Assembly (NCBI GenBank): GCA_964369115.1
Contig: CAYJED010000003.1
Coordinates: forward strand, 28,458-92,457
Length of the DNA: 64,000 nt
Direction: 5' to 3'
Origin: an uncultured Candidatus Saccharibacteria bacterium
GTDB taxonomy: Bacteria; Patescibacteriota; Minisyncoccia; Phycocordibacterales; UBA5272
The stretch's first letter is position 1. Each line of letters opens with the position of its first letter. Of this stretch, positions 10,101 through 64,000 are shown piece by piece. The notes under the pieces are model-generated. The model did not search any database. It saw only the letters and a list, made by a program, of their open reading frames with translations, and was not told where the DNA came from. The translations under genes were made by a program, and so were the position numbers.

Positions 10101-10111
10101 ATTATAGATAG

Positions 10112-10806: not shown

Positions 10807-10855
10807 AAGATAGTTAATAGTTAATGGTAGCTAGTTAATAGTAAATACAAATACG

Positions 10856-12190: not shown

Positions 12191-12474
12191 AATAGTTATT
12201 CGTAATTAGTTATTCGTAATTAGTTTTTATACACACAAATTTCATAAAAACTATACAAAATAAGGCTATTTTTATAATTTTTTAACAAAAGTGATTACAC
12301 TTTTTTAAAAATGCGTTCGGACAATATGAAAATATTTCGCATTGTCACTCACTTTTTTCAATAAAAATGGCCGGACCACTGGTCCGACTCACAACTTCAC
12401 ACACATCCAAACTAACTATTTTAGTATACCATACACTCTAAAAAAAGCAAGTATATGTACTATCTCAAGTTTAT

Positions 12475-14502: not shown

Positions 14503-14535
14503 AAGAGCGGCGCCGTAGGCGCCGCTCTTTTTCTC
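14503..14535. terminator. GC-rich hairpin terminator
   Basis: agagcggcgcc-gtag-gcgccgctct followed by ttttctc; near-identical copy at 15375..15408. Confidence 0.6.
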
Positions 14536-14613
14536 TTGTATTTTACTAATTACTCATTACTAAAAACTAATTACTGTCTCTTACTTCACCACCGGCCCAT
14601 CAGGCTGTTTCAC

Positions 14614-15300: not shown

Positions 15301-15374
15301 TACTTTTATTAAAATGTCAAATAATACACTCTTACAGCTTCGGATTTACACTTCATCACTTTCTTTAATTAGTT

Positions 15375-15408
15375 AAAAGAGCGGCGCCTACGGCGCCGCT
15401 CTTTTTAT
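15375..15408. terminator. GC-rich hairpin (copy of 14503..14535 element)
   Basis: agagcggcgcc-tac-ggcgccgctct followed by ttttatc. Confidence 0.5.
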
Positions 15409-15444
15409 CTTGTATTTTACTAATTACGAATTACTAACAACTAA

Positions 15445-28363: not shown

Positions 28364-28551
28364 TTTTTGTTTTACAAGATAGAGTTACGTTTATTGCTGG
28401 ACAGAGATGATCTTCGATCACCTCTGTCCATTTCAATTTTGTTTATTAAAATACTATAAACGACTCCACAAAACCCCATATAGAAGGGGCTTGCATTATT
28501 GACAAAAGTGTGATACAATATCTTTATATAGTTAAAAAACCTTTAAATACC

Positions 28552-28815
28552 ATGCTTTCAGCAAGAAAAAAGGCAACCGCCATCAAAAACGTTCAGATTC
28601 ACGGTACAGATACAGGATCACCTGAAGTTCAGGTATCTATTCTTACTAAGAAGATCACTGAGCTTACAGGACACCTCAAGGTGCACGCAAAGGATAATCA
28701 CTCACGTCGTGGGCTTATCCAAATGGTAGCGGATCGCCGCACCCACCTTAAGTATCTCGAAGGTAAAGATAAGAAGCGTTACAACGCACTTGTATCTAAG
28801 CTTGGACTTAAGTAA
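28552..28815 (+). CDS. rpsO: 30S ribosomal protein S15
   Basis: [55 protein letters not shown]...: canonical S15; start set at MLSARKK. Confidence 0.9.
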
Positions 28816-36400: not shown

Positions 36401-36697
36401 AAAATGGCGGTTTCATTTAATGATCTTATACGAGAAGAAGCTCCTTCTGTGCTTGAAAAGAGATTGTTCGATATTCCTTCAATGAATATTAAAAAGCTCA
36501 CAGGCGGGGAAGAGGTTGTGTACGGTCTTTTAAGCGAAGAACGTCGTGCGCTCTGTCTCTTTGCTGAGAAACTAAAGAACATCATTACAAAAACAAAAGG
36601 ACTGAAGACATCTTACGTTTACGAAGAAACTGAAACACTTCAGTCACTTTACGATACAGCACGAAATGCAATAGGTACTACAGATAATAAAAAATAA
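33449..36697 (+). CDS. large coiled-coil protein, hypothetical
   Basis: 1082 aa, K/E-rich, long predicted helices; no recognisable enzymatic motif. Confidence 0.55.
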   Translation: MSDNNRGRKDFSSLPDGFSAEPNLGQKKPGTFSRFGATAEPGTFVVAQKNRENLVTSSVQKNTEISSSFKNTLQGTRPGMEIGPNSKALKALESITEGLDKAGITVESDGQISFNEDSWVFKQLEEEKKAYAERVAHLVRRFALLKRSFDAVSSFATEEQRKEIETLLSGPLAWLKNDDLPEKISDEEEKVLGVALSSLSKITSRIEDEQDDALRKTQEAERLAQEAKLLAQRQELIARKALGDLYVTFGTLQAKAILLGKGYEDRLLPFLDHSINTRLIAETTPNDETVAGFKAALNELDEEIGNIEKEKQDEETKTKAEPTPVTPVSAAPTPEKAPANIYGGWPTSIKQVTKKEDPKNPKSRQVTFWQLTDRNNQTKALDHGETWSSLKTNFDEEFKHYLAFIQEGDRVRKIKECGNLIAHKEAVIKAILDLDIDTAFSLIAVFRDLIAETKTSWTEKMKKEGEVGAKDKEGLEKKKAIVKSFEEVSKRYAKEKERYQNEALPFITSELERQMFDRSMKTIDGYTKELEEEELEEYVSNVATFTALVETTKQRLEKMYGKGNAPLRTRFGKKGVGHVFLRGGKSITEDEWNKKQEQDEAEKEITIEKQKRATREELERIHRKMLERDKASYISFYKNKPRIAGDQNKDIAQTVLEEERARLGEEQLGLAVDRAELVATGAYDETTQKEIEEITKSIHDLDVAIDDATPKTDEELQRDELRALTKNETTIKNTKQTFNPSRSTLLRNTGKEKPNFSLLRPFKSWSDIVKYQEGEKAYTANKEKVTSVYEEDANKAQVTVGPRKEEASIVREVGSTPITIVPPKGSDTVPYTSSLGADGMVHQFTAKKEEAGVQPEPMATETPTIKNKIEPTFSLADLDTTVLEARSGRQEINDSLDAQRLEKEAHEKKKFATVEKTLQSFSGESWLRMLALFTALRKPLPKINEYEVAQKFTQSQKTAESLADINWKRFLTAEELAFTEKLVGKMAVSFNDLIREEAPSVLEKRLFDIPSMNIKKLTGGEEVVYGLLSEERRALCLFAEKLKNIITKTKGLKTSYVYEETETLQSLYDTARNAIGTTDNKK

Positions 36698-36698
36698 T

Positions 36699-36986
36699 AT
36701 GAACTTTGAAGAACTGTATAGTCAACTCATAGAAGACTTCGAGCTAGAAAATCTACCAAAAGAAGAACAAAAAGAGATGCTTGAAGCTGTAGCAAAAACA
36801 CTACAAAAGCAATTTCTCTTAGATATTTATGATGAAATAGGTGAGAAGCAATTTGAAGCGTTGCAAGCCTCTGCTCAAATGGGGGAAGATTTCTACGCAA
36901 CCACACTTAAACATATTGTTCCAAACTACGAAGAAGTCTTTCAAAAATCAAGAAGAAAAGTGGTTGAAACATTCAAAAGAAAGTAA
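36699..36986 (+). CDS. hypothetical protein
   Basis: 95 aa; start overlaps the stop of the upstream gene (taATATG), suggesting translational coupling. Confidence 0.45.
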   Translation: MNFEELYSQLIEDFELENLPKEEQKEMLEAVAKTLQKQFLLDIYDEIGEKQFEALQASAQMGEDFYATTLKHIVPNYEEVFQKSRRKVVETFKRK

Positions 36987-40173: not shown

Positions 40174-41163
40174 TTGATAAAAAAGAGGGTAAATAAAAGA
40201 GACTTCACATATACTGAAGGGTATATGGATGAAGAAAATAAAAAACCTCTTGGAAGGGTGGCTCTCGTTGGGGCTTTGTTTTTAAGCTTACTCCTTCTCA
40301 CTGCTTTTATACCAGCACGATGGGTAGGTTTAGAGCCTAAGGTTTCTGGCTATACACCAATCGATTTTAGTAGCATAAAACCAGCAGAAGAAGTTCTAAA
40401 AGAATCTGATAGAGATAATAACGGTACAGTAACCTGGAGAGAGCTTTTTGAAGCAAACCTTCCAGAAGGGGAGACGCTTCAACTTGAGGCTACAACCCCT
40501 GATCCAAAAATACAAAAAGCTCTTGATGACCCAAACAACTTAACGACCTCTTTCGCTAAAAACTTAATAGTAAGTTCAACCTACATAAAAAATAATAATA
40601 TTACTGACCCAGCGGCTCAGGAGGTTATTTTTAACGGAATTACCCAAGAAGAACTTAATAAGACGGCTTCTAAAAAATATACACTTGGCGACATTAAGGT
40701 TGCGAAAAAAGAAAGCAAAGAATCTATTCGCGTTTATGGCAATCAGATGGCAGTCATTCTTAAAAATATCATTACTGTAAAAGATCTTGAAACCGACCTC
40801 CCTGGTGTTATAGATTACTTAAACACTAAAAATGAAAAAAGTGTCGACCCTATAAAAAAGACTGCAACCTACATGGAAAACGTTGTAGGAAAACTTCTTT
40901 TGGTGGAAGTTCCTCCGTCTGCCGCTTTATATCATATCTCAGTACTTAACCAGGCGGTGGTGTATAGGGATGTAGTGAGCAATATTTCAAAAATCATTGA
41001 TGACCCTGTGCGAGCTTCTATAAGCGTAGAGAAGTACCCGAAAACAAGTCTTGATACACTTCGCATTTTTATTACACTCAAAAACTACTTTTCGGTTCAA
41101 AAAATCACCTTCACTTCAAGTGAAGCAGGGTATGTCTTTATTACTGGCTATACTCTAAAATAA
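40174..41163 (+). CDS. membrane-anchored protein, first gene of T4SS-like cluster, hypothetical
   Basis: N-terminal TM (VALVGALFLSLLLLTAFIPA); 329 aa. Confidence 0.45.
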   Translation: MIKKRVNKRDFTYTEGYMDEENKKPLGRVALVGALFLSLLLLTAFIPARWVGLEPKVSGYTPIDFSSIKPAEEVLKESDRDNNGTVTWRELFEANLPEGETLQLEATTPDPKIQKALDDPNNLTTSFAKNLIVSSTYIKNNNITDPAAQEVIFNGITQEELNKTASKKYTLGDIKVAKKESKESIRVYGNQMAVILKNIITVKDLETDLPGVIDYLNTKNEKSVDPIKKTATYMENVVGKLLLVEVPPSAALYHISVLNQAVVYRDVVSNISKIIDDPVRASISVEKYPKTSLDTLRIFITLKNYFSVQKITFTSSEAGYVFITGYTLK

Positions 41164-41167
41164 TAGT

Positions 41168-42964
41168 ATGAAAAAAACCTTTATCGCTTTATCACTTTTT
41201 ACTCTCCTCTTTAGCGGATCAGCAAAGCCTTCCCATGCACTTTTTGGGGTAGGGGATATTGTTTTTGACCCAGCATCTCTCGGTCAGTCACTTATTGATT
41301 ACGTTATACAAGGTTATCAATATGTTGAAGATGCTGCGACAAAAAAATCCACTTTTATAAATACCGCAACTGAAGTGGCAGAAAAAGTAGACACCGTAAT
41401 GAAAGACGTTCAAACTGCTGCAACTATGGCCTCAATAATAAGCTCAAGCCGGGCAGTGGGAAATTTAATTCTTGGCGATCTTGGTGTGGACCCGCTCTTA
41501 GTGCGTAAACCAGAGCAATATCTTGAAAATGAAGGCAAAAAAGTGCTTCGAGGTGTTATAGAGGACCCAGAAATACAAGCAACGCTTTATGATGTAAGTG
41601 TTATGCGTTCACTCATAGGTCAAGCAAGATATGATGCACAAAATCTTAACACCAAAATAAAACAAATCAACACTTCTGATATTGAAGCAATTGTGCAACA
41701 AAGCTACTGTACAGACGAAGCACTTTCTGCTCAAGCAAGAAAAGATGTAGCAGCAAGCGGAAATACTTCTGAAGAAGCTTACAATGATCGCAAGCGAGCA
41801 CTTAACCAAGCTCTTTGTGTAGGAGATGCAAAAAGCGATCCGCAAACAAAAGCAAACCTCCGTGAATGGAATAGACAAAATCCGACATGGGACAGTTTTC
41901 TAGCTACTACGGGCGGAGATAATGGTTGGACAAAGCAGCAGCTTACTGAACAAGCTATTGCTGAACGTCAAAAAGCTGTACAAGATGCGAAAAAAGCAGA
42001 CTTAGCTCAAGGAGGAGGAATAAAGAGCGAGGTTGAGTGTCTTGAGTATGTTGTTCCGGGAAACAAAGCAACCGGATGTAAAAAAGGGAAGGAGCGTATT
42101 AGAAAAACATCTTCAGCTCTTGAACAGCGTTACCAAGACGCACTCTCAGGTCCTCTTAAGGCACAGTTAGCAAGTTTTGGTAATGCGGCAGGAGGTCTTT
42201 TATCAAGAGTTGCGTCAATAGCAGGGAGCGCTTACACAACTAAATCTCTTCTTGAGAATATGAGCGGAAATTTTGGTGGAGGGAGACCAGAAGAAGGAGA
42301 TGATACGTTTGGGGAAGGAGGGGTTACTAATGTAGCTCAAACAGTTTCTTATCGTAGCGACTTAGCTTCTAGTCAAGACCTTAAGAGAGCTATCACATCG
42401 GCTCCGATGGAACAGATTTCTAGTCATAAATCTTCGCTACAAAAACTAGCAACGATTAATAATTCGTACATTTTGAGTGTTAACCAAGAGAAATCATCTC
42501 TTGATAACATGCAAGCATGTTATGGGAACTTAATTGCTACGGAGCCAATGCTAGCAGATGACAATAGAGTACAAAGTGCAAATGAATTTTATGGTAACAA
42601 GATTGGAGAAAATAGAGACTTGTACGAAAACCTTATGGGTGAAAAAGAAAAGGTGGCTACTGGTATTCAAATACTTTCTGAAACAGAAAGAAAGATAGAA
42701 TCCTCGCAATCCTCCGAAGAGATTGTTTCCGACTTCAACAAATATAATGAAAATTTCTCTAAGGAAAATATTCCCGGTATGGCTGCACACATACAAAAGG
42801 AAGCAGACTATACTTTGTTTAAACAGGATCTCGAAACTTCACTTAGAGAAAACGGTGAAATATGGACATATAACAATACCTGTTCTCAGATTCGCCAAGA
42901 GCAAGCATCTAGAAATGGAAATCCTTGGAACAATGGCGGTGACGGAGATGGGGGAGGTATCTAA
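41168..42964 (+). CDS. secreted protein, hypothetical (T4SS-associated)
   Basis: Signal peptide MKKTFIALSLFTLLFSGSAKPSHA; 598 aa; Gly-rich C-terminus. Confidence 0.5.
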   Translation: MKKTFIALSLFTLLFSGSAKPSHALFGVGDIVFDPASLGQSLIDYVIQGYQYVEDAATKKSTFINTATEVAEKVDTVMKDVQTAATMASIISSSRAVGNLILGDLGVDPLLVRKPEQYLENEGKKVLRGVIEDPEIQATLYDVSVMRSLIGQARYDAQNLNTKIKQINTSDIEAIVQQSYCTDEALSAQARKDVAASGNTSEEAYNDRKRALNQALCVGDAKSDPQTKANLREWNRQNPTWDSFLATTGGDNGWTKQQLTEQAIAERQKAVQDAKKADLAQGGGIKSEVECLEYVVPGNKATGCKKGKERIRKTSSALEQRYQDALSGPLKAQLASFGNAAGGLLSRVASIAGSAYTTKSLLENMSGNFGGGRPEEGDDTFGEGGVTNVAQTVSYRSDLASSQDLKRAITSAPMEQISSHKSSLQKLATINNSYILSVNQEKSSLDNMQACYGNLIATEPMLADDNRVQSANEFYGNKIGENRDLYENLMGEKEKVATGIQILSETERKIESSQSSEEIVSDFNKYNENFSKENIPGMAAHIQKEADYTLFKQDLETSLRENGEIWTYNNTCSQIRQEQASRNGNPWNNGGDGDGGGI

Positions 42965-43057
42965 TAGATATGAGCTGACAAAAACTCTGCAAAATGCAGA
43001 GTTTTTACTTTTTAACAAACACACACCTAAAAAGAACCTTATGGTACACTAGAAACT

Positions 43058-45910
43058 ATGAAAAAACTCCGTGCCTTGTTTCAAAGCATAATTTTTCTGT
43101 TTGTTTTGTCTTTGTTTTTACCCACTGTTTTTGTTAATGCTCAAAGCCCTGAGGAACCAACAACAGTAACACAAACAAGCTCAAATGACTCTGATTATCA
43201 AGCATATCAAAGCAGAACCGTTGTTCTCTTTAACACTGCAAGAGATGGAATAAACAACTTAATTACAACAACAAGAAACTTACCCATTTCTCAACAAGAG
43301 AAAGATACCGCCATATCAGCATATAACAGTTACCTAGCTGTTATAGGCACAGCCTCAAGAACTTACACATCTCAGATAGGTGGATATATTGGATCTTCAA
43401 CACTACCACCACAAGGACAAAGACTAGCTCTTGATGAAGCCTTGCGAATTCTTGCGCAGGGAAAAGGTTCTCTGCCACAAAATACTAATGCGCTTAATAT
43501 TTATAACTCATTAGAGTCAGCCCTCCAGACTGCAAAAACCTCAGCAGCTCAGTTTGCTGCAGGATCAAGCGGTGGGGACGCTCTTACAAATGCAGCAAAC
43601 GACCAAATAGCAGGCGCTGCTTCTGCTGCCAAAAAAAACATAACGAAAGGTATCTGTTCTATTGGTGTTTTGTCTGACATGAACCTTGGTGCTTGTGTGT
43701 CTGAATTCTTTTCTTGGGTAATTAAAAATACCTTAATGGAGCTTGCTGGGTGGTTTTTTTGGGCTTCAGCAAATCTTTTTAATTTTGCAATGAGTGTTGC
43801 TGTTCTTGATTTTAAGTCGTGGGCACCAGACGCTCTTTATCCGCTTTGGATTGTTATACGACAAATTGTATCTCTACTCATTGTTTTTGCGGGTCTTTAT
43901 CTTGGGTTTATGTACATCTTAGGAAGGGAAGATAAGTTTGAAAAGTATATTCCTTGGGTGGTAATTTTTGCTCTTTTTGTAAACTTCTCTTACCCTCTTG
44001 TAAGAACCGCAGTAGATATTTCAAATATTGTTTCACTTAAACTGTACTCGGTTGCTGTTGGACCGGAAGCTTTAAGTGGAGGTCTCACAGGGTTACAAAC
44101 TCCTGGCGGAAGAATACTAAAACACTTAGGTCTACAAGACTTGGCAGCAAGCGCAACAGCAGAAGAAAGCGACAAAAATAATCTGAAGGGTATTAATACT
44201 ATTTCTGGGGCGCTTTTGGTTGTTGTGTTTTTAGGATACGCCGCATACATCTTCTTTGTTGCAACAGGAATTATTGTTATGAGAACTTTAGCTTTAGTTT
44301 TTCTCATCATCGCCTCACCAATTCTTTTTATAGATAGTGTGATACCAATGCTTGGTGACCAGGCGATGAGGCTACGTAAAATATTTTTTGAACAACTTGC
44401 AGTTGCTCCCATTTTTACCATCATGCTAGCGATTACCCTTAACTTTCTTTCTATTTTTAGTACATCAACCATTACCAGCAATCCTTCTGGTGGAGACGCA
44501 ACAATCACAACCATCTTTACTATGGTGATCATGCTTGGGTTGCTACACCTAACACTTACGGTAACAAAAGAGGTTGCTGGAAAAGTGGGTAATTTTGCAG
44601 GAGAAGCTCTTGGTAAGGTGGGGGGATTTGCAGGAGGTGTTCCTCTTGGTGCAGCTACAGGTGGTGTCGGACTTCTCGCACGTAAAAGTATTGGGGGGCT
44701 TGCAGTGAAAGCTCGCGACAGTGCATGGGTACAAAAAAATCAAGATACTGCTGGAGGCAGGTTTGCACACAGTATAAGCAACTCTCTTGCAAAGAGCTCT
44801 TTTGATTTAAGAAATACTTCTGTTGCGCAGAGAGGGGCATCTAAGCTCGGTATTAATATGGGAATGGGGTCAAAGATGAACTATGAGGATATGCAAAAGG
44901 CTAAACTTCAAAAAGCTCGTGAGGTTGGTGAAAGAATAAAATTAAGACATGAACGAGACATCATCAAAGATGGAAAACTTGTTGCGAGAGCAGGAGATCT
45001 TAACGAAGAAATGGTTGAAGCTAAGCGACGTTATGACGAAAGAAACGGTGGAGCCCTTTTCTTAACCAAGGGTGACAAACAAGCTTTTGCTGCTCAATAT
45101 GCCGACACAACAGGTGGTGAGCTCGTAGCAAAATATAAAAGTACACCAAAAGGAGAGAGGGGTCTTTTTTCTGATCAGCTTAAAAAAGAATTTGAGGAAC
45201 TTAAGAAGACCGATCCTCAACTTAAAAGTAACAGAGGGCAGGCGTTTGCTCGTGCTGTGTATGATATAGAAAAAGAGGAAACAGCAACAAAGAAGGCTCT
45301 TGATGAGGAATTTGAGAAAGTGTCAGGAGAAATAAATGACATGACAGCAGATAAAAAACAAAATTATTATGCACGTCAAAGTGAAGAAATAAAAAAGCTT
45401 TTAAGGGTAAATAACATTTACACACCCTCTTCCACATCAATACCAACCGCAGCACAAACTGTCGCTCAAAATAAGCCAACCCCGCCTGCCGCAGGACCCC
45501 CTACAGCAACAACGGCTCCTGTCGCGGCAATAAACACCCCACCATCAACAGCAGCACAAGACTGGTCGCAGTATGATACTCCAACGTACCAAAGAAAACA
45601 AAAAGAAGGGGGTGCACCGACTCAACAAACAATATCAAGCAGCGCAGATGAATCTGCTCCACAAGGAGGAAAACCAGGATTTCTTAAAACCGCTGAAGAA
45701 AAAATCCAAGAGCGTGAAGAAAACAAACAAGTAGCAACTTCTGGATCAGCTGAATTTGGCGATTTCGCAAAGAGAAGAGAAGCGGCTGCCCAAGCTGTGC
45801 AAAAAAACATGGCAAATAATGCTGCTGAAGCTTCTGCTCAGCAAATCGCAAATGACGCCATTAAAAATGCTCAGGAAGACTCCAAAAAAACCCAAGAAAC
45901 TGCTTCTTAA
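43058..45910 (+). CDS. large polytopic membrane protein, VirB6/TrbL-like candidate
   Basis: Signal peptide, then 6+ hydrophobic helices between aa ~200-520, Pro/Ala-rich and coiled-coil C-terminal tail; 950 aa. Confidence 0.5.
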   Translation: MKKLRALFQSIIFLFVLSLFLPTVFVNAQSPEEPTTVTQTSSNDSDYQAYQSRTVVLFNTARDGINNLITTTRNLPISQQEKDTAISAYNSYLAVIGTASRTYTSQIGGYIGSSTLPPQGQRLALDEALRILAQGKGSLPQNTNALNIYNSLESALQTAKTSAAQFAAGSSGGDALTNAANDQIAGAASAAKKNITKGICSIGVLSDMNLGACVSEFFSWVIKNTLMELAGWFFWASANLFNFAMSVAVLDFKSWAPDALYPLWIVIRQIVSLLIVFAGLYLGFMYILGREDKFEKYIPWVVIFALFVNFSYPLVRTAVDISNIVSLKLYSVAVGPEALSGGLTGLQTPGGRILKHLGLQDLAASATAEESDKNNLKGINTISGALLVVVFLGYAAYIFFVATGIIVMRTLALVFLIIASPILFIDSVIPMLGDQAMRLRKIFFEQLAVAPIFTIMLAITLNFLSIFSTSTITSNPSGGDATITTIFTMVIMLGLLHLTLTVTKEVAGKVGNFAGEALGKVGGFAGGVPLGAATGGVGLLARKSIGGLAVKARDSAWVQKNQDTAGGRFAHSISNSLAKSSFDLRNTSVAQRGASKLGINMGMGSKMNYEDMQKAKLQKAREVGERIKLRHERDIIKDGKLVARAGDLNEEMVEAKRRYDERNGGALFLTKGDKQAFAAQYADTTGGELVAKYKSTPKGERGLFSDQLKKEFEELKKTDPQLKSNRGQAFARAVYDIEKEETATKKALDEEFEKVSGEINDMTADKKQNYYARQSEEIKKLLRVNNIYTPSSTSIPTAAQTVAQNKPTPPAAGPPTATTAPVAAINTPPSTAAQDWSQYDTPTYQRKQKEGGAPTQQTISSSADESAPQGGKPGFLKTAEEKIQEREENKQVATSGSAEFGDFAKRREAAAQAVQKNMANNAAEASAQQIANDAIKNAQEDSKKTQETAS

Positions 45911-45943
45911 GAAAGCGTCCACCGCTTATACTATAATCATTAC

Positions 45944-46693
45944 ATGTATCCTTCATATATCGCAGAAAATAGAGGGGAGTTATTCGATCAGGTATCTGAC
46001 TACGTACAGGGGTTAATTCTTGATGGCGAATTAAATCAAACAACTCTTGTTCTTGCTGAAAAATATAAAATACCTGTTGGAAAATATGTTCCACTTTCTG
46101 AACTTATTTCTTTTATTTTAATCGGGGCGTTACAGCCCGACGATGTCCTTCAGGCACTTGAAGATATGGTGGGGGTAGACAATGCAACCGCTCTTCATGT
46201 TGCGGAAGACTTAGAGCATTCAATCTTAGAAAAAGCTCGTATGAGCTTGTTTAAAAAGGGGGATCCAACCAAAGTTGCAAAACTTGAATTTCAAGGAACA
46301 CGATCAAAGGAAGAACTTCGAAAAGAAATTCTCGATACAACAAAACGTGAGTCAGCTCTTGTGAAAAATCCTGTTGCTGCTAGCGCCCAAGGTATCAAAA
46401 AAACATCCGTCTTAAACCCTGGATCTCGTTCACAACTAATGGAACAGCTACAAATTCTAAGTACAATACCAGATGATGAAGAGATAATAGCAAGACTTGC
46501 TCATATTCAGGAGCAAATTAATAGTATTAAAAAACAAGAAGAAGATAATAGTCTTAAGTCAAATATTGCTCTTAAAAGCTTTATGTTCGGAGAAAAAGGG
46601 CAGGAGGTAGCTGAAACAAAAACTCGCCCCGCAACATATAGTATTGCCCCAAAAGAGTATAATGTTGACCCTTATAAAGAAATAGTGGGGTAA
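45944..46693 (+). CDS. hypothetical protein (T4SS cluster)
   Basis: 249 aa, soluble. Confidence 0.45.
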   Translation: MYPSYIAENRGELFDQVSDYVQGLILDGELNQTTLVLAEKYKIPVGKYVPLSELISFILIGALQPDDVLQALEDMVGVDNATALHVAEDLEHSILEKARMSLFKKGDPTKVAKLEFQGTRSKEELRKEILDTTKRESALVKNPVAASAQGIKKTSVLNPGSRSQLMEQLQILSTIPDDEEIIARLAHIQEQINSIKKQEEDNSLKSNIALKSFMFGEKGQEVAETKTRPATYSIAPKEYNVDPYKEIVG

Positions 46694-46734
46694 GTTTGTA
46701 CTCTTTACTTCTTTTCTTTTGATATACTAAGACT

Positions 46735-47172
46735 ATGCAGTTTAGAGTACCTCAATTTATTGATATTGAAGATAAAGTTTTTGGCCCTTTTACCTTAAAG
46801 CAATTTGGGTATATTGTGGGTGCGGGGGGTATTTCTTTTCTTATCTGGACACTTATTCCTATTAAATTTATTGCTATTTTAATTATAGTTCCTATTGCAG
46901 GCCTTTTTCTTGCTCTTGCTTTTGTTAAGTACAACAACAGATCTTTTGGTGAAATTCTTGAAAGCGCTTTTACTTACTACACAAATACTCGTATCTATAC
47001 ATGGAAACAACCGGAACTAAAAAAAGACGAGTCTTCTGTTGATCAAATTGTAGCAAATACACAAAAAGATATTATTATCGCAAAAACAAATAGTAATAAA
47101 ATTCACGACCTTGCTCTTGGTCTTGATGTTTTTGATAGGTCAACAGAGATCAATAAAGAAGACGATAAATAG
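46735..47172 (+). CDS. small two-TM membrane protein, VirB3-like candidate
   Basis: Two adjacent hydrophobic helices (GAGGISFLIWTLIPIKFIAILIIVPIAGLFLALAFV), positioned just upstream of the VirB4-like gene. Confidence 0.4.
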   Translation: MQFRVPQFIDIEDKVFGPFTLKQFGYIVGAGGISFLIWTLIPIKFIAILIIVPIAGLFLALAFVKYNNRSFGEILESAFTYYTNTRIYTWKQPELKKDESSVDQIVANTQKDIIIAKTNSNKIHDLALGLDVFDRSTEINKEDDK

Positions 47173-47237
47173 TATCAAAGTATTCGTGTGTAAAAAATAA
47201 AAACGATAACCTCTTTATAAGGTATACTCATCTTTAT

Positions 47238-47873
47238 ATGGCAACAAAAGGAGTAGCAACACAGGAGTTTGTACCGATTGAGAGAGTTCGTGACGGTATT
47301 ATCATTTTAAAGACAGGGGAACTTCGAACTATTCTTATTACAAACTCTCTCAATCTTGGACTTAAAAGTGAAGATGAGCAACAGGCTATTCTTTCACAGT
47401 TCCAAAACTTTCTTAACTCTCTTGATTTTCCTGTTGAGTTTTTTATTCAATCCAGACGCCTTAACATAGGACCATATATGGACATGCTTCAGGAAAGAAG
47501 TAAGCAGGTGAAAGAAGACCTTCTTAAAATTCAAATTCACGAATACATGGGATTCATTAAGCGCTTTACCGATGAGAGCAACATTATGACAAAGCACTTC
47601 TTTATAACCATTCCTTACTTTAATCAGAAAAAAGAGGAAATTAACACTTCTTCACTTCTCTCTTTTAGTAGTGACGGTAAAAGTAGAACAAAAGATGACA
47701 GCTTTGAAACCGCCCGCATACAACTTGAACAGCGAACAGCGACTGTTATGCAAGGAATCTCTCGTTTTGGGTTGCGTGCAGAACGACTTGGAACAGAAGA
47801 GGTGATTGAACTTTTTTATAAACTTTTTAATCCGAGCGAGGCTAATCGTGACACCCCAAAGGTTGGACAATAA
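47238..47873 (+). CDS. VirB4 N-terminal-domain-like protein (possibly a split-off or frameshifted 5' part of virB4)
   Basis: EFVPIERVRDGIIILKTGELRTILITNSLNLGLKSEDEQQAILSQFQNFLNSLDFPVEFFIQS resembles the N-termini of Gram-positive-type VirB4 ATPases; ends 11 nt before the next ORF, in a different frame. Confidence 0.45.
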   Translation: MATKGVATQEFVPIERVRDGIIILKTGELRTILITNSLNLGLKSEDEQQAILSQFQNFLNSLDFPVEFFIQSRRLNIGPYMDMLQERSKQVKEDLLKIQIHEYMGFIKRFTDESNIMTKHFFITIPYFNQKKEEINTSSLLSFSSDGKSRTKDDSFETARIQLEQRTATVMQGISRFGLRAERLGTEEVIELFYKLFNPSEANRDTPKVGQ

Positions 47874-47883
47874 CTATACACAT

Positions 47884-49719
47884 ATGGGACTTTTTGACTT
47901 TCTCAATAAAAATAAACCGGTAGAAACTACGACACCAAGCTCTCCTATTAGCCCTGTACTTCCAGAGCAAGTATATAAGATTGCAGAGATGCAACTAAAG
48001 GACATTATTGCCCCGAGTGCTCTTGAAATTCAACCTAAAGGAATTAATCTTGGGACAACTGTGGTTCGTTCTTTCTTTGTTATCTCTTATCCAAGATATC
48101 TTACCGACAACTGGCTTAGCCCCATTGTTAACCTTGATAAGGTGTTTGATGTTTCAATTCATGTAACACCACTTAACACAGGTGAAGTAATGAAAACCTT
48201 TCAACGTAAAGTTGCTGAGGTGCAAAGTCAAATCATGGTAAGAGAAGAGAAGGGGTTGGTGCGAGATCCTTCACTTGATGTTGCTTATCAAGATCTTGAA
48301 GATCTTCGTGATGGACTTACCCAGGCTCAAGAGAAAATGTTTGAGGTTGGTCTTTACATTACTATCTACGGGGAAACATCTGAGGAGGTTGATAAAACTG
48401 AAAATGAAATTAAAAATATTCTTGAAAGTAAGCTTGTTTATGTAAAGCCAGCACTGTTTCAGCAAGATGCGGGTTTTATCTCAACACTTCCTGTGGGAAC
48501 AGACTTGCTTCAGATTAAAAATAAAATTAATACCTCTCCACTTTCTTCATTTTTCCCGTTCGTTTCATTTGACCTTTCGTCTGATAAAGGAATTCTTTAT
48601 GGACTTAACCGTCACAATGGAAGCCTTATTCTTTTTGATCGTTTTTCTCTTGAAAACTACAATTCAATTGTTTTTGCAAAATCAGGTTCTGGTAAAAGTT
48701 ATATTACTAAGCTTGAAATTCTTCGTACTCTTATGTTTGATACGGAGGTTATTATTATTGACCCAGAACGAGAATATGAATTCCTTGCTGAATCGGTAGG
48801 GGGACGTTACTTCGATATCTCTCTTGTAAGTGATCACCACATTAATCCTTTCGATCTTCCTCACCCAACAGAAGACGAGTCACCATCTGAAGTGCTTCGA
48901 GCAAACATTGTTAATCTCGTTGGACTTTTCCGTGTAATGCTTGGTGGTCTTACTCCAGAGGAAGACGCCATTATTGACCAGGCAATTACTGAAACATATG
49001 CACTTAAAGATATTAACGGGGATACTGACTTTACACAGTTAGAGCCTCCACTTCTTTCTGATTTTGAAACTGTTCTTGCGGGAATTGACGGGTCAGAGAG
49101 CATTTTGCAACGTCTCTCAAAATACACAAAAGGAACATGGGCTGGTTTTATTAACCAACCTTCAAATGTTGATATCAATAAAAAACTTGTTTGTTTCTCT
49201 ATTCGTGACATGGAAGACGAACTTAAGCCTGTTGCAATGTATATTGTTACCCACTTTATCTGGAACGCTGTTCGTAAAAACCTAAAAAAGAGACTTCTTG
49301 TTGTTGATGAGGCGTGGATTATGATGAAAAATGATGACACAGCATCATTCTTGTTTGGTCTTGCAAAACGTGGACGTAAATACTACCTCGGACTTGCGAC
49401 TATTACCCAAGATGTTGGGGACTTCCTTAAGTCACCATACGGTCTCCCGATTATTACAAACTCTTCAATTCAAATACTTCTTAAACAGTCTCCGACGTCG
49501 ATTGACCTTGTTCAAAAAACATTTAATCTTACCAACGAAGAGAAGTTCTTACTTCTTGAATCAGGGGTAGGGGAAGGGATATTTTTTGCAGGACTAAAGC
49601 ATGTTGCTATCAAAGTAGTTGCTTCGTATACAGAAGATCAAATTATTACAAGTGATCCGTCTCAGCTTCTAAAAATTGAAGAAATGAAAAAAGAAGTTGC
49701 TGAATCAAAAGCCGTATGA
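47884..49719 (+). CDS. virB4: type IV secretion system ATPase VirB4/TrbE/TraC-like
   Basis: Conserved N-region IIAPSALEI...GTTVVRSFFVISYPRYL..WLSPI, Walker A AKSGSGKSY, Walker B LLVVDEAWIMM (DEAW hallmark); contains protospacer 49077..49108. Confidence 0.8.
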   Translation: MGLFDFLNKNKPVETTTPSSPISPVLPEQVYKIAEMQLKDIIAPSALEIQPKGINLGTTVVRSFFVISYPRYLTDNWLSPIVNLDKVFDVSIHVTPLNTGEVMKTFQRKVAEVQSQIMVREEKGLVRDPSLDVAYQDLEDLRDGLTQAQEKMFEVGLYITIYGETSEEVDKTENEIKNILESKLVYVKPALFQQDAGFISTLPVGTDLLQIKNKINTSPLSSFFPFVSFDLSSDKGILYGLNRHNGSLILFDRFSLENYNSIVFAKSGSGKSYITKLEILRTLMFDTEVIIIDPEREYEFLAESVGGRYFDISLVSDHHINPFDLPHPTEDESPSEVLRANIVNLVGLFRVMLGGLTPEEDAIIDQAITETYALKDINGDTDFTQLEPPLLSDFETVLAGIDGSESILQRLSKYTKGTWAGFINQPSNVDINKKLVCFSIRDMEDELKPVAMYIVTHFIWNAVRKNLKKRLLVVDEAWIMMKNDDTASFLFGLAKRGRKYYLGLATITQDVGDFLKSPYGLPIITNSSIQILLKQSPTSIDLVQKTFNLTNEEKFLLLESGVGEGIFFAGLKHVAIKVVASYTEDQIITSDPSQLLKIEEMKKEVAESKAV

Positions 49720-50678
49720 TGTTTATACGTTATTTCTTTTTCTTCTGTTTTTTTATTCAAGCAACAGCAGTATCTGCTGAAGACTTGGCAAGCATTCGTC
49801 TCAACCCAGAAAACCCCGCACCTTACAGTAGTGTGGAAGTAAAACTTGAGAGCTTTTATTTTGATGTCAATGTTGCTCGTATTACATGGGAGGTAAATGG
49901 TCGTGTCATCTTAACTGGTGTAGGGGAAAAGAAAATCTCTATAATAACTGGTGCAATAGGTCAGCCAACAACCGTTAAAGTTACAGCGGAAGCAAGTGAC
50001 GGATCAAAGGTAGAACAGGTTATACCAATACGTCCGTCTTCAATAACCCTTTTGTACGAAGCACCAAAAAGTTACATTCCTCTTCTTTATAAAGGAAGAT
50101 CTCTTCCTGCTGACGGGGCAGAGGTTAAAGTAACAGCATTTCCTCAAATAAGTGAAAAAGGTGCCCCTGTGTCACCTTCAAATGTTTCTTACAGTTGGTA
50201 TATTAATGATGAATTTTATGAAGATATTTCTGGGTATGGTAAACAATCTGCTTCAATAAAAATGGATTACCTGAGTCCTTATACTGAAGTAAGAGTTCTT
50301 GCAAGAACAACATCAGGAACTGTTGCAGAAAAATCAATTGATATTTATCATCATGCAGTCACACCTCTTGTTTACCTTTATGACCCAGTGCTTGGCACAC
50401 GATTTTCCAAGCTTTTAGAGCGTCGTTTTGAAACAACGGAAGACTTCACTCTCATGCTTGAACCTTTATATGTGACACACAAAGAATCAAAAGCACCAAC
50501 CTACACATGGACATTAAATGGTTCACCTTCTACTCCACTCGATGGAAGATCTCTCTCATTCCAACCAAAAAAGAACTCCTACGGATCACAGCGTCTACAA
50601 ATTTCAGTGATTGGACCAAATGCTTATCTTGAAGAAGGGGAGGTTGCTCTTGATCTTGTTTTTGATACAAGAAGGTAA
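49716..50678 (+). CDS. secreted beta-rich protein, hypothetical (T4SS cluster)
   Basis: Signal peptide MMFIRYFFFFCFFIQATAVSA; 320 aa. Confidence 0.5.
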   Translation: MMFIRYFFFFCFFIQATAVSAEDLASIRLNPENPAPYSSVEVKLESFYFDVNVARITWEVNGRVILTGVGEKKISIITGAIGQPTTVKVTAEASDGSKVEQVIPIRPSSITLLYEAPKSYIPLLYKGRSLPADGAEVKVTAFPQISEKGAPVSPSNVSYSWYINDEFYEDISGYGKQSASIKMDYLSPYTEVRVLARTTSGTVAEKSIDIYHHAVTPLVYLYDPVLGTRFSKLLERRFETTEDFTLMLEPLYVTHKESKAPTYTWTLNGSPSTPLDGRSLSFQPKKNSYGSQRLQISVIGPNAYLEEGEVALDLVFDTRR

Positions 50679-50706
50679 ATCAGCTGTTATACTTATATGA
50701 TTAAGT

Positions 50707-51519
50707 ATGGCAACACCTTATACACCTCTCGAACCCTCCTCAATAACAGCTCTTTCTAGTGTAGGAGCTTCAACAAATGTAAGTGACGCTTCTTTTGCAG
50801 GGATAACTACGTTTGTTTACTCACTCTTTTTTATAGGAATAATTGGTGCAGCTTTTTATAGATACACTCTTGCTGGAATGTTTAGAATGGAAGCTTCTGA
50901 ATCAGGTATTCGTAAGTCTAATGAAATATTTAAAAGGGTTACTCTTGGATTACTTGGAGTATTTTCTCTTTTTATTCTTTTGTTTACTGTTAACAAAGGA
51001 TTAGTTACAGGAGATGTTCCTCTTGGAAATTTAAAATCAGGTGGACAAACTTCAGGTGGACAAGTTGTACAGCCTCCTTCTCCTGCTGTAGGGGCTCCGG
51101 GGACGGGGGACGGGAGAGCAGAAGCAATACAGCAAGATGCGGCCGTTCGCCAGCAATTAACATCTCAAGGAATAACCGTAAATAAACCAGTCTGCCCAAA
51201 TCCATCTGCCACAGATTGCACCACAATTGGAGGTGTTCACCCTGATACGATTTCAATGCTTCTTCGGTTACGTACAACATGTAATACGCCTTACACGGTA
51301 ACAGGAGGTACAGAAAAAGGTCATGTTGAGAACGGAACACATGGACCGGGACGACCAGCTGTTGACCTTAGTTTTGGAAATCAAACCCTTAATACATGTA
51401 TTACTACTTCAGAAAAAGCCACACCTAACCCAATCCCTGGATATTGTGTTAATGCTTATAAAAAGCTTGGTTATATTTTTTGCCAAACATCAAAACCACA
51501 TTGGCACGTATATAAGTAA
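50707..51519 (+). CDS. two-TM pilin-like N-terminal module fused to M15-family zinc peptidase (cell-wall hydrolase) domain
   Basis: N-terminal 127 aa identical to paralog 52893..53882; C-terminus has ENGTHGPGRPAVDL (SxHxxGxAxD-like) and HWH, consistent with the VanY/M15 fold. Confidence 0.55.
   Translation: MATPYTPLEPSSITALSSVGASTNVSDASFAGITTFVYSLFFIGIIGAAFYRYTLAGMFRMEASESGIRKSNEIFKRVTLGLLGVFSLFILLFTVNKGLVTGDVPLGNLKSGGQTSGGQVVQPPSPAVGAPGTGDGRAEAIQQDAAVRQQLTSQGITVNKPVCPNPSATDCTTIGGVHPDTISMLLRLRTTCNTPYTVTGGTEKGHVENGTHGPGRPAVDLSFGNQTLNTCITTSEKATPNPIPGYCVNAYKKLGYIFCQTSKPHWHVYK
50727..51108 (+). repeat. 382-bp direct repeat, copy 1 (identical to 52907..53288)
   Basis: Identical by eye across the whole length; encodes the shared N-terminal module. 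Confidence 0.85.
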
Positions 51520-51563
51520 GACGTTCACAGGAACTTATTTTACTAAGCTGATATACTTCTTTT

Positions 51564-52889
51564 ATGGAAAGCTCTGGAAATAAAAGACTCCTTATTGCTG
51601 TTGGTCTCGTCCTCCTTTTGGTTATTGTTGCGCTTGTTTGGTATTTCGTTTATGCAAAACCACTTGTTGCCCCATCACTTGGAGGAACAAATGACCCTAT
51701 TGCAGAAAGACAATTTCGTCCACGTTTTCAATTCCTTAATTGGGGAGAAAATGCTCAGTCTCGCGAAATAAGTAACGAAACAAAAGATCCACGAAAAGAA
51801 GTTCTCACCCAGATTTGGGACAAGCCAGCTTCTGGTCATAGATTTTTTAATGCTTCTATTTTGAAAGAAGTCACAGCAACTACAACCCAAGGGACATCCA
51901 CCACTGTTATTGAGGTAAAAAGAACTGTACGCGCAACCTCTACTATTCTTCTTTTTATCGACAAAACAACCGGATACATTTACCGTTATTCATTTGAAAC
52001 AGGAAAAACTTCACAAATATCAAACACCCTTATCCCGGGGGTTTCTGATGCTTACTTTTTTAATAATGGAGAAAGGGTTATTATTCGTTACCCAGAAAAA
52101 GAAAAAAATACTGTTTCAGGTATTATTGCAACATTACCTAATGTTACAGAAAACGGGGAAGCTCTTCCTCTTATAGATGCTCAATATCTTACCCAAGAAG
52201 TAATGTCTGTTGCTGTAAACAAAAAAGGAGATTTGGCTGCTTATGTTGTTGCAACAACTAACGGAAGTTCTCTTTATCTTATTTCAGGTAAAACAGTACC
52301 TCGACTTGTTACATCGTCTCCATTTAGGGAATTTACTGTTTCATTTGGTGGTAATTCTCTTTATCTCACATCAAAACCATCTGCTTATGTGGAAGGGTCT
52401 ACATTTTTAATACGACCATCAGGAAATACTCAAGGTGGAGTATTTGAAGTTGTAACGGATGGAAAAACGGGACTTATAACAAACCCTGGCGAAATTGCTC
52501 ACCTCAATAGTATGTGGGGTAAAAATGGCCTTGTTACCTTTTTATCAAACAATGGACAAACTAAAACTCTTTCCATTCAAACAATTGCATCTAAGTGTGT
52601 TTGGGGTACAAATAATTTTCTTGTTTGTGCTGTTCCTCGTCTTATTTTAAGAGGTAAAGAAGGTCTTCCGGACGACTGGTTCCAAGGAAGAACAACTTTT
52701 GAGGACGATCTGGTTACGGTTGATCCACTTTCTGGTGAACATTTTTCTCTGTATTCATTTAAAAATGAGGATGATATTTTTGATATTGAATCTCTTTCAA
52801 TTGATGATGAAAATGGTGTAGTTAGTTTTGTAGAAAAAGAAGAAGAAACGTTATGGCTTCTTAATACAAATAACTTTCAGCAAGAATAG
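51564..52889 (+). CDS. membrane-anchored beta-rich protein, hypothetical
   Basis: N-terminal TM (LLIAVGLVLLLVIVALVWYFVYA); 441 aa. Confidence 0.5.
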   Translation: MESSGNKRLLIAVGLVLLLVIVALVWYFVYAKPLVAPSLGGTNDPIAERQFRPRFQFLNWGENAQSREISNETKDPRKEVLTQIWDKPASGHRFFNASILKEVTATTTQGTSTTVIEVKRTVRATSTILLFIDKTTGYIYRYSFETGKTSQISNTLIPGVSDAYFFNNGERVIIRYPEKEKNTVSGIIATLPNVTENGEALPLIDAQYLTQEVMSVAVNKKGDLAAYVVATTNGSSLYLISGKTVPRLVTSSPFREFTVSFGGNSLYLTSKPSAYVEGSTFLIRPSGNTQGGVFEVVTDGKTGLITNPGEIAHLNSMWGKNGLVTFLSNNGQTKTLSIQTIASKCVWGTNNFLVCAVPRLILRGKEGLPDDWFQGRTTFEDDLVTVDPLSGEHFSLYSFKNEDDIFDIESLSIDDENGVVSFVEKEEETLWLLNTNNFQQE

Positions 52890-52892
52890 TGT

Positions 52893-53882
52893 ATGGAGTA
52901 CAAAGCTCTCGAACCCTCCTCAATAACAGCTCTTTCTAGTGTAGGAGCTTCAACAAATGTAAGTGACGCTTCTTTTGCAGGGATAACTACGTTTGTTTAC
53001 TCACTCTTTTTTATAGGAATAATTGGTGCAGCTTTTTATAGATACACTCTTGCTGGAATGTTTAGAATGGAAGCTTCTGAATCAGGTATTCGTAAGTCTA
53101 ATGAAATATTTAAAAGGGTTACTCTTGGATTACTTGGAGTATTTTCTCTTTTTATTCTTTTGTTTACTGTTAACAAAGGATTAGTTACAGGAGATGTTCC
53201 TCTTGGAAATTTAAAATCAGGTGGACAAACTTCAGGTGGACAAGTTGTACAGCCTCCTTCTCCTGCTGTAGGGGCTCCGGGGACGGGGAGTGGTTCAAGC
53301 GGAGGTTCTGCATCTTGTGTAACTGTTGCATCAGTAAACCAAAATCTTCAGTCCGGTAATATTTGTAGACAAGCTTCTTGTACCGTACTTAGTGGATGTA
53401 ATTACAGACAATATGAAGATGTTATTAAGAAAGAAACTGGTAATGATGCTAAGCTTACAAAAATGATTATTGTCACCATGTGTAAAGAATCTCGAGCACA
53501 AGTAAATGAGGAAAATAGAAATCCAAACGGAACTTATGATTGCGGTTTGATGCAAATCAACCAAACAACTCCGTGCACAGCCCAGATTCTTGATGTAACA
53601 CAAAATATTAAACAAGGAGTAGCTCTTATGAAAGAAAAAATAAGGTACGCTAGTCGTGTTTATTCAAACATCCCTTCAGAAGCAAATGTGTTTGCGTCTT
53701 ATAACTGTTGTGCAAATGGAGATAATCCAGCAAGTGAAAGTAGGGACTGCAACACTTCCTCAGGATTTTCTCAAAGTATCCCTAAGTGGGCATGTCCAAT
53801 AAACCCTGGGTCAGGACAATTTAACATGTGTGCAGTAAGTAATTATGCATGTGAATTAACAGCCTGTTTAAACCAATTATAA
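52893..53882 (+). CDS. two-TM pilin-like N-terminal module fused to SLT-family lytic transglycosylase domain (VirB1-like)
   Basis: MCKESRAQV...NPNGTYDCGLMQIN matches the ES-GLMQ motif of family 1 lytic transglycosylases; Cys-rich C-terminus; 329 aa. Confidence 0.7.
   Translation: MEYKALEPSSITALSSVGASTNVSDASFAGITTFVYSLFFIGIIGAAFYRYTLAGMFRMEASESGIRKSNEIFKRVTLGLLGVFSLFILLFTVNKGLVTGDVPLGNLKSGGQTSGGQVVQPPSPAVGAPGTGSGSSGGSASCVTVASVNQNLQSGNICRQASCTVLSGCNYRQYEDVIKKETGNDAKLTKMIIVTMCKESRAQVNEENRNPNGTYDCGLMQINQTTPCTAQILDVTQNIKQGVALMKEKIRYASRVYSNIPSEANVFASYNCCANGDNPASESRDCNTSSGFSQSIPKWACPINPGSGQFNMCAVSNYACELTACLNQL
52907..53288 (+). repeat. 382-bp direct repeat, copy 2
   Basis: See copy 1. Confidence 0.85.
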
Positions 53883-63726: not shown

Positions 63727-64000
63727 CTATTCTTCTCCGTAAAGATCGACGGTTTTACCAATTTCCTCAAATGAAGTAATTCCTTCAAGCATTTTTAGTA
63801 TAGCATCTTCGCGAAGGCTAGGGATTTTTTGATTTTTGGCAGCATTCCTCACTTCTCGTTCTGTTGGGTTAGTGATAAGTATCGCTTCCATATCTTTATT
63901 CATAATAATGCCTTCGAAGATACCAATACGTCCCTTGTACCCGCTCCCGCTACACTCCTCACACCCAACTGCTTTATGTAGCACATATGCTGTAGCGGGG
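63727..64000 (-). CDS. GspE/PilB-family secretion ATPase, C-terminal part (gene continues beyond window edge)
   Basis: C-terminal zinc-binding CxxC...CxxC region (GCEECSGSGYKGRIGIFE) typical of T2SS/T4P assembly ATPases; reading frame is open to position 64000. Confidence 0.65.
   Translation of the reverse strand, partial: PATAYVLHKAVGCEECSGSGYKGRIGIFEGIIMNKDMEAILITNPTEREVRNAAKNQKIPSLREDAILKMLEGITSFEEIGKTVDLYGEE

Follow-up and report, generated by a model that had tools for sequence, protein, structure and literature searches.

Does the block of genes beside the replication origin in this stretch of DNA belong to a mobile conjugative element, or is it a secretion system of the chromosome itself? 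The stretch, referred to here as the window, comprises 64 kb of contig CAYJED010000003.1 from an uncultured member of the Patescibacteria. All coordinates are window positions, and the analysis was confined to the window, with the remainder of the source genome lying outside it. A preliminary description, made from the letters alone, had read the block at positions 40174–53882 as a type IV secretion system (T4SS) or conjugation-like cluster. This interpretation is supported because profile searches recover a Gram-positive-type (MPF_FATA-like) core, namely VirB4, PrgI, an SLT-domain protein and a weakly matching VirB6, plus a TrsD-like protein, and because the published T4SS of Patescibacteria matches the arrangement. 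The cluster is confirmed as a chromosomal T4SS typical of the Patescibacteria (candidate phyla radiation, CPR), a kind already described in 2023–2025. The system very probably descends from the monoderm (MPF_FATA) conjugation machinery and has been uncoupled from its DNA-transfer functions.

A large part of bacterial diversity belongs to the Patescibacteria, which live attached to other cells. The T4SS is one of a small number of machines with a demonstrated essential role in this lifestyle (in Saccharibacteria). The window provides a well-resolved example from the Paceibacteria with a full parts list (Table 1), in which the conservation of VirB4 matches that of DnaA.

Setting and inheritance of the gene block

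The contiguous open reading frames (ORFs) that had been described on the + strand are all present. There are eleven of them, the first likely starting at 40225, and the gaps of 3–93 nt together with one overlap of 4 nt suggest an operon organisation. The terminator-like hairpin in front of virB6 possibly acts as an attenuator that separates ksgA, g329 and g598 from the later genes. The GC content of the block (0.36–0.42) is the same as that of the remaining window, without compositional deviation. On the 5′ side, the block is flanked by uvrD/pcrA and ksgA (Pfam), and on the 3′ side by yidC(−), rnpA(−), rpmH(−), dnaA(+), dnaN(+) and a gene for a class A penicillin-binding protein. The layout of an origin region, with rpmH-rnpA-yidC diverging from dnaA-dnaN, is therefore present, and the proximity to the replication origin claimed in the preliminary description is supported by this canonical gene arrangement. 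E. coli-type DnaA boxes occur at chance level (17 found versus 15.8 expected), so that oriC itself is not pinpointed. The scan for promoter consensus sequences was uninformative (44 found versus 44.9 expected).

A VirB4 scan with one genome per species gave at least 370 relatives; the counts of synteny and conservation in this text use the best 80. These are all metagenome-assembled genomes of Patescibacteria, most of them carrying the labels Paceibacterota, Nomurabacteria, Parcubacteria or (questionably) Saccharibacteria, and their VirB4 proteins are 70–91% identical to that of the window. When all window proteins were searched by tblastn in these species, the order ksgA, the 11 genes, yidC, rnpA, dnaA, dnaN recurred in essentially every locus that was long enough. 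Block and flanks are thus fixed among the best 80 species examined, all selected by VirB4. Because the same gene order and flanks are found in about 80 species, the block is, as far as synteny can tell, a vertically inherited core system and not an integrated conjugative element (ICE), as the preliminary description had already suspected. The median identity to 50 more distant genomes is 73% for VirB4, 55% for DnaA, 52% for KsgA, 36% for YidC and 34% for DnaN, a comparison that is biased by the selection of the loci through VirB4. The VirB4 value indicates that this protein is probably under strong purifying selection.

Neither a relaxase nor a type IV coupling protein (T4CP) was found by Pfam, which was run on nearly all ORFs of the window from 100 aa upwards other than those nested in, or overlapping with, longer annotated ORFs, and no integrase adjoins the borders of the block. 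The sole recombinase, a tyrosine recombinase, lies 15 kb away. Hence, of the three functions reported earlier as missing from the window, relaxase and coupling protein were indeed not found among these ORFs, whereas an integrase-type enzyme is present.

Table 1. Positions of the features discussed in the text (window coordinates; TM, transmembrane)
Feature	Position	Strand	Remarks
Tyrosine recombinase	23841-24854		15 kb from the block, adjoins the CRISPR locus
Cas12f-like effector	25774..27003	+	PADLOC Cas12_x1 (V-F), E 1e-123
Self-matching spacer	28053..28084	+	first, leader-proximal spacer of CRISPR array 2 (28013-28338)
g329	40174..41163	+	extracellular all-alpha protein anchored by one predicted TM helix
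g598	41168..42964	+	predicted to be secreted, Sec signal peptide
Terminator-like hairpin	42980..43006	+	stem of 12 bp followed by a T-run, located in the 93-nt gap ahead of virB6; from a consensus scan only
Extended VirB6-like polytopic membrane protein	43058..45910	+	950 aa; conserved in 60 loci
g249	45944..46693	+	soluble, no TM, probably cytoplasmic; orthologues in 29 loci
PrgI/VirB3-like small membrane protein	46735..47172	+	Pfam PrgI E 1.7e-11, 44.9 bits (cut-off 27)
TrsD-like protein	47238..47873	+	211 aa; equivalent of the N-terminal ~180 residues of full-length VirB4
VirB4-family ATPase	47884..49719	+	611 aa from ATG 47884; longest ORF opens at TTG 47806
Protospacer in virB4	49077..49108	+	codons ~398-409, LAGIDGSESILQ; 32/32 identical to the spacer
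g320	49716..50678	+	predicted to be secreted, signal peptide, beta-sandwich (Ig/PKD-like)
g270	50707..51519	+	N-terminal two-helix membrane hairpin, disordered linker, small alpha/beta domain (model pLDDT 82)
Direct repeat, copy 1	50726..51108	+	383 nt, within the g270 gene
g441	51564..52889	+	TM-anchored (residues 3-37) extracellular beta-rich protein; in 56 loci
VirB1-like lytic transglycosylase	52893..53882	+	N-terminal hairpin module, linker, SLT domain
Direct repeat, copy 2	52906..53288	+	383 nt, within the SLT gene
GspE/PilB C-terminus	63727-64000	−	T2SSE, E 4e-12

Components of the machinery

VirB4: The ATPase matches Pfam P-loop_TraG (E 8e-25) as well as AAA_10, and with 373.5 bits it exceeds the cut-off of 325 for the NCBIfam model NF045971, "VirB4-like conjugal transfer ATPase, CD1110 family." Its Walker A motif is AKSGSGKS and its Walker B motif LLVVDEAW, which includes the DEAW noted in the preliminary description. 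The nearest plasmid-borne VirB4 proteins come from Firmicutes and Actinobacteria and are 29–36% identical.

TrsD: The ORF directly upstream of virB4 had been left unnamed in the preliminary description. It matches full-length VirB4 models of NCBIfam (profile positions 2–128 of 752 with E 3e-7; 104–240 of 894 with E 1.6e-10), and its precomputed Pfam assignment is TraC-like. Against NF041427 TrsD/TraD, the match has E 5e-6 and 26.5 bits, so that the homology is evident but the score stays below the curated cut-off of 200. As the 611-aa VirB4 spans positions 183–733 of the same VirB4 model, the two proteins match successive parts of one model. Hence, the two genes are predicted to form a split VirB4 that is collinear as a whole with one canonical VirB4. 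The split is kept in relatives, as a separate TrsD-like gene of 202–240 aa is found in 76 loci.

PrgI/VirB3: The two-TM, VirB3-like protein described earlier scores above the Pfam cut-off for PrgI. It has a single hydrophobic stretch (residues 25–67), which is long enough for two TM helices, and it is present in 73 of the 80 loci.

VirB6: According to the hydrophobicity scan, a signal peptide is followed by an exodomain of roughly 200 aa, then by about six predicted TM helices (residues ~258–504) and finally by a tail of some 420 aa that is hydrophilic and of low complexity. This topology fits an extended VirB6, in line with the VirB6/TrbL-like protein of the preliminary description.

VirB1-like lytic transglycosylase: The SLT domain scores 23.4 bits (Pfam cut-off 21.3), its orthologues reach E 8e-9, and homologues of the protein carry SLT/SLT_3. 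Of the two cell-wall hydrolase fusions described earlier, this one is borne out; the second, g270, had been called an M15 peptidase, which could not be demonstrated.

g270: In the alpha/beta domain (predicted local distance difference test, pLDDT, in Table 1), residues H206, H212, D220 and H267 are invariant and H265 nearly so in up to 51 orthologues. The spacing H212-x7-D220 compares with H-x(3-6)-D ... H-x-H in the M15/LAS pattern. None of the 51 orthologues has a Pfam peptidase family, and neither a profile search against PDB sequences nor Foldseek against PDB gave a match. Among the top four BFVD entries, three are M15 peptidases, all below threshold (E 0.08–0.5). A zinc peptidase is therefore a plausible candidate function, judged from the model and the motif. 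The assignment to M15/LAS is plausible but unproven because Pfam and PDB gave no sequence or fold match and the BFVD matches are sub-threshold.

The genes of the two hydrolases share a direct repeat of 383 nt with zero mismatches at an offset of 2180 and with sharp borders. The repeat codes for the hairpin module together with the beginning of the linker. According to the model and the hydrophobicity scan, the hairpin consists of two helices of about 30 residues with the N-terminus outside, a basic loop inside and the C-terminus outside. The first 110 residues of the paralogues are 79–96% identical within a genome versus 44–72% between species, and this holds for 11 of 12 other genomes with both genes. 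As the identity of paralogues within a genome exceeds that between species, the module bears the signature of concerted evolution by recurrent gene conversion. As the membrane hairpins of both hydrolases are apparently kept identical in this way, a speculative reading is that both enzymes must dock at one shared site of the T4SS. The perfect 383-nt module, common to two hydrolases and apparently evolving in concert, is modestly novel.

Some further observations concern this repeat. Public contigs of the same strain break at it. One relative (L016, 12785–14500) has a single hairpin-SLT gene and about 2.2 kb less DNA, without the catalytic part of g270 and without g441; recombination between the 383-nt repeats would fit this loss, and so, equally, would an assembly collapse. 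Another relative (L021) seemingly lacks the SLT gene.

Six proteins of the block (g329, g598, g249, g320, g270 and g441) have no family assignment in Pfam and NCBIfam. Four of them, g320, g441, g329 and g598, are conserved extracellular proteins and hence candidates for the part that contacts the host.

g329: The probable start is ATG 40225 (312 aa, as called in public assemblies) and not TTG 40174. The protein has a TM segment at residues 24–53 and a short Ca-binding-like DxDxDG motif, and its AlphaFold model (pLDDT 85) shows the TM segment plus a helical bundle. Distant homologues carry PF18884. A hidden VirB8 was considered for g329 and rejected: as the confident model is all-alpha, and as Foldseek/PDB fold and PDB sequence searches gave no match, the protein is not VirB8/NTF2-like.

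g598: The signal peptide noticed in the preliminary description is of the Sec type, as read from the sequence. The alignment of 18 orthologues contains seven invariant Cys residues, and no match was found in Pfam, NCBIfam or PDB.

g249: No family was matched in Pfam or NCBIfam.

g320 and g441: Secreted and membrane-anchored beta-rich proteins had been described, and both agree with this. g320 has a signal peptide and weak Pfam matches to BiPBP_C, PKD and Ig, without a PDB sequence match in the profile search. As judged from its presence in 75 of the 80 loci, it is a core component. g441 has a TM anchor, and its profile matches TolB weakly (E 0.003–0.02), so that it is possibly a beta-propeller.

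Known relatives, proposed mode of action and alternative explanations

The arrangement, including the position near the origin, is already published (Quinonero-Coronel et al. 2025, Microb Genom, PMC12102498), and the cluster itself leaves the current understanding unchanged. That survey places the VirB4 clade of Patescibacteria within MPF_FATA; in it, TrsD is the commonest partner of VirB4, and homologues of PrgI/VirB3, VirB6 and (in Paceibacteria) VirB1 adjoin virB4. A relaxase is absent, and VirB8 is almost confined to the class ABY1, so that VirB8 is not required for the Patescibacteria clade. In Paceibacteria, virB4 is located near dnaA, dnaN, rnpA, ksgA and rpmH, which was read as a possible gene-dosage effect. 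The block shares with these systems a VirB4 of MPF_FATA affinity, a TrsD-like protein directly upstream, PrgI/VirB3, a weakly matching VirB6 and VirB1-like neighbours, the lack of a relaxase and the origin neighbourhood; none of the differences is essential. What goes beyond the survey is the hydrolase module that appears to evolve in concert, the collinearity of TrsD plus VirB4 with full-length VirB4, the four additional conserved extracellular proteins without a family, and a block in which no VirB2-like gene was recognised.

In Southlakia epibionticum, the T4SS is essential for epibiotic growth by transposon sequencing and has no coupling protein or relaxase (Wang et al. 2023, Cell, PMC10633639). 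The system of strain ML1 (SEML1_0006-0019) resembles the one described here in being an origin-proximal chromosomal T4SS of the Gram-positive type without a recognisable coupling protein or relaxase, and in having peptidase and lysozyme-type genes 3′ of virB4. It differs in belonging to the Saccharimonadia and in six VirB2-like pilins, arranged in an essential array to which nothing in the block corresponds.

The conjugative MPF_FATA systems (pCF10 Prg, pIP501 Tra, pGO1 Trs, ICEBs1 Con and Clostridioides CTn2 CD1110) have in common with the block a CD1110-family VirB4, PrgI, a TrsD-like protein, a polytopic protein of putative VirB6 type and a membrane-anchored VirB1-like hydrolase. In contrast to them, the block is chromosomal and, by its synteny, vertically inherited; VirB4 identity is only 29–36%; relaxase, T4CP, oriT, a VirB8-like (NTF2) protein and a PrgB-type adhesin are missing; and there are two single-domain hydrolases instead of one bifunctional SLT+CHAP enzyme. 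The analogy to ConG, ConE and CwlT of ICEBs1 drawn in the preliminary description therefore applies at the level of a monoderm T4SS and no further.

How would the system work? The steps proposed here follow established knowledge of the families, while gene content, conservation and synteny come from our data. The motor would be a hexameric VirB4 ATPase, split into the TrsD-like N-terminal protein and the 611-aa ATPase. PrgI/VirB3 and the extended VirB6 channel protein would dock VirB4 at the membrane, where it would power a channel or fibre. Two membrane-tethered hydrolases, one with an SLT domain and one with a His/Asp motif, would open the peptidoglycan, and the lineage-specific extracellular proteins g320, g441, g329 and g598 may form the distal section, in contact with the host cell. 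What is transported, and in which direction, we only infer: by analogy to S. epibionticum, the sole relative with genetic data, the machine most likely secretes proteins or assembles a surface structure where epibiont and host meet, and it probably does not conjugate DNA. The location beside dnaA/oriC would reflect ancestral synteny and may raise the gene dosage.

Several points weigh against this picture. The 80 loci were chosen by VirB4 similarity, which inflates the conservation of VirB4 relative to its neighbours and means that absence from relatives is not showable. A T4CP or relaxase could be encoded elsewhere in the genome, outside the 64 kb. The 950-aa protein remains below the Pfam threshold for TrbL (E 3e-3, 17.6 bits, cut-off 25.9), and only 3 of 40 orthologues match TrbL at E ≤ 0.01 (best E 1.8e-4), so that its match to this family is weaker than the preliminary description implied. 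A VirB8-like protein was not found; g329, whose topology made it the most promising candidate, turned out to be an all-alpha bundle. The Saccharimonadia system possesses a pilin array, but among the genes of the block none was recognised as a VirB2-like pilin. Finally, the data on essentiality come from another class, the Saccharimonadia (PMC10633639), and no member of the Paceibacteria has been studied genetically.

One alternative is a T4SS for DNA import of the competence type, such as Helicobacter ComB or the archaeal Ced system, which would take in DNA from the host or the environment. The absence of relaxase and T4CP in cis is a feature of import systems, a PilB/GspE gene lies nearby, Patescibacteria are unable to make nucleotides (PMC10633639), and the spacer derived from virB4 implies that DNA of the chromosomal type has reached the adaptation machinery. 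VirB4 also has a weak partial match to the CedB model (E 3.5e-10), but this match is limited to some 70 residues in the P-loop region, and the models of conjugative VirB4 reach far higher scores. In S. epibionticum, competence needs the type IV pilus and ComEC; a comEC deletion eliminates transformation but leaves the cells viable, while the T4SS is still essential (2025 review, PMC12857230). Because viability remains intact in the comEC deletion, the essential role of the T4SS is not ComEC-dependent DNA uptake. As the block also contains neither ComEC nor a DNA-binding component, we consider import improbable, and the evidence does not favour the DNA-uptake option raised in the preliminary description.

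Alternatively, the machine may mainly assemble a surface structure (pilus or adhesin) without a translocated substrate, with VirB4 extracting hairpin proteins into a fibre and the hairpin acting as a pilin-like anchor. The two helices with their basic loop have a pilin-like topology, VirB2-like genes occur near virB4 in many Patescibacteria (PMC12102498), and the review mentioned above notes that T4SSs of Patescibacteria may build pili of the conjugative type (PMC12857230). The hairpin was accordingly considered as a pilin, but it has no match in the Pfam pilin families (TrbC, T4SS_pilin) even at E ≤ 10, and the block contains no free-standing pilin gene. The hairpin is perhaps merely a membrane anchor. 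A membrane anchor is also found in PrgK/TraG-type VirB1 proteins of Gram-positive systems. Altogether, a pure assembly machine appears quite improbable.

Least credible is that an ICE, or its decaying remnant, landed by chance near the origin and that the spacer provides immunity against it: core genes are homologous to monoderm conjugation genes, virB4 is the target of a spacer and a tyrosine recombinase is located inside the window, but synteny largely rules this out, with identical position and gene order in about 80 species at the high VirB4 identity given above, and in addition the composition is not deviant, relaxase and T4CP are missing from the window, the recombinase is 15 kb off beside the CRISPR locus and is kept there in a second strain, and the conservation of VirB4 equals or exceeds that of DnaA, which is unexpected for a decaying element.

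Self-matching spacer, CRISPR locus and further features

The chromosomal T4SS is indeed, as had been described, the target of a self-matching spacer, the match being located in virB4 (Table 1). The spacer belongs to a CRISPR locus at 24965–28370, 21 kb upstream of the T4SS, which consists of two array-plus-leader modules, inverted duplicates that flank an effector gene and cas1. The 409-aa effector is cas12f-like, and Cas1, with 230 aa, is short of the N-terminal third that Cas1 models have. At its distal end, each array closes in a degenerate repeat and a terminator-like hairpin, so that the leaders adjoin the cas genes. Many contigs of homologues are about 2.2 kb long, as if assemblies broke at the inverted repeats.

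The spacer has the sense of the virB4 coding strand, and its 5′ flank in virB4 is CTGTTCT. Over the T4SS region, a second, independent assembly (GCA_013558375.1) shows 99.7% identity; it has the same first spacer (L081, 6280–6311) and an intact target. Since this second strain keeps both, the self-match is, by all appearances, stably tolerated. In array 2 of GCA_013558375.1, three distal spacers differ, whereas in array 1 the distal spacers are common and the newest differs. The position of the virB4 spacer thus runs against the normal polarity in array 2, while array 1 of the same strains is normal; recombination, or selection for the virB4 spacer, are possibilities. The other spacers have no match in the window or in 94 loci. 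Three exact scans of viral contigs gave 0 matches, as did metagenome scans for repeat and spacer, and because no other spacer found a target, no protospacer-adjacent motif was derived. Within ±10 kb of the related cas12f-like loci L089–L092, no self-targeting was found, and their arrays have ordinary polarity.

In all 25 homologues of the effector, the RuvC-I Asp aligns to Ala or Ser. Visual inspection of the alignment indicates that the RuvC-II Glu is not conserved and that the Zn-finger/RuvC-III segment is missing, as the protein stops ahead of it. The Cas12f-like effector family therefore appears to be nuclease-dead. A CRISPR-associated cluster of nuclease-dead Cas12f proteins without sigma-E, the guides of which sometimes match host promoters, has been reported (Hoffmann et al. 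2025 preprint, PMC12259090). Common to that cluster and our locus are a short Cas12f-like protein with RuvC substitutions and C-terminal truncation, the position beside arrays, and a guide that matches a chromosomal gene. The guides of the Hoffmann cluster reportedly hit promoters of efflux cassettes, whereas the guide here hits the middle of virB4, and the locus here keeps Cas1 and shows spacer turnover.

As the virB4 spacer belongs to an apparently nuclease-dead effector, RNA-guided repression of the T4SS would be possible. The CRISPR RNA has the sense of the coding strand and would hence pair with the template strand. We nevertheless regard it as doubtful that the T4SS operon is under natural RNA-guided control by a brake resembling CRISPR interference. 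If it were, binding of the complex within virB4 would curb the transcription of virB4 itself and of the hydrolase and surface genes downstream, in a machine kept at high origin dosage. Relative to the cluster itself, the observation on spacer and effector is new, and a self-targeting guide that is stably kept is modestly novel.

Three spacers of array 1 and the location of the cassette deserve mention. The spacer at 25176–25207 (TTGTGGAGATGGGCGGGGTCGAACCGCCGTGT) resembles a tRNA T-arm with the 3′ acceptor and maybe has a second chromosomal or a phage tRNA target. The spacers at 25105–25135 and 25248–25279 are identical over the first 12 nt (TGCTGCATCAAA) but differ thereafter, as though they came from homologous sites of two related targets. 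In the window, the cassette adjoins rpsO (S15, 28510–28815). In two other Paceibacteria lineages (L089–L094, ~10001–12600 in each), the cassette of cas12f-like gene, cas1 and array is found within the S10 ribosomal-protein operon or next to it: in L089–L092, it is located directly between rplB (L2) and rpsS (S19); in L093, it likewise has rplB and rpsS on either side, but it follows rplJ/rplL immediately and other genes intervene on both sides; and L094 begins just upstream of cas12f, so that only the rpsS side is visible.

The GspE/PilB gene that had been noted at the edge of the window is confirmed by its T2SSE match. No tRNA genes were found by ARAGORN and no RNA families by Rfam at gathering thresholds in the 64 kb. 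Gene packing is dense and proteins are short (e.g., YidC with 237 aa), which is what a reduced genome of the Patescibacteria would lead one to expect. Sequencing runs of the source samples (ERR44054xx and SRR100360xx) contain identical sequence. At 33449–36986, as well as at 129–3821 of L089–L091, a protein of about 1100 aa without a family and with a strong A-over-T skew is followed by a DUF5663-like protein of about 95 aa; the pair occurs in distant Paceibacteria. The 675-aa ORF at 12475–14502, also without a family, contains at 13395–14507 about five tandem copies of a repeat of 207–225 nt (69–75 aa) with 63–86% identity. An 83-nt element (14500–14582 and 15374–15456, 90% identity) is found on either side of the 214-aa ORF at 14656–15300 and consists of a GC-rich perfect hairpin terminator and an AT-rich stretch of the TTACTAA type. 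Motifs resembling TAGTAATTAGTAAT recur in several intergenic regions (10109, 12193, 15417).

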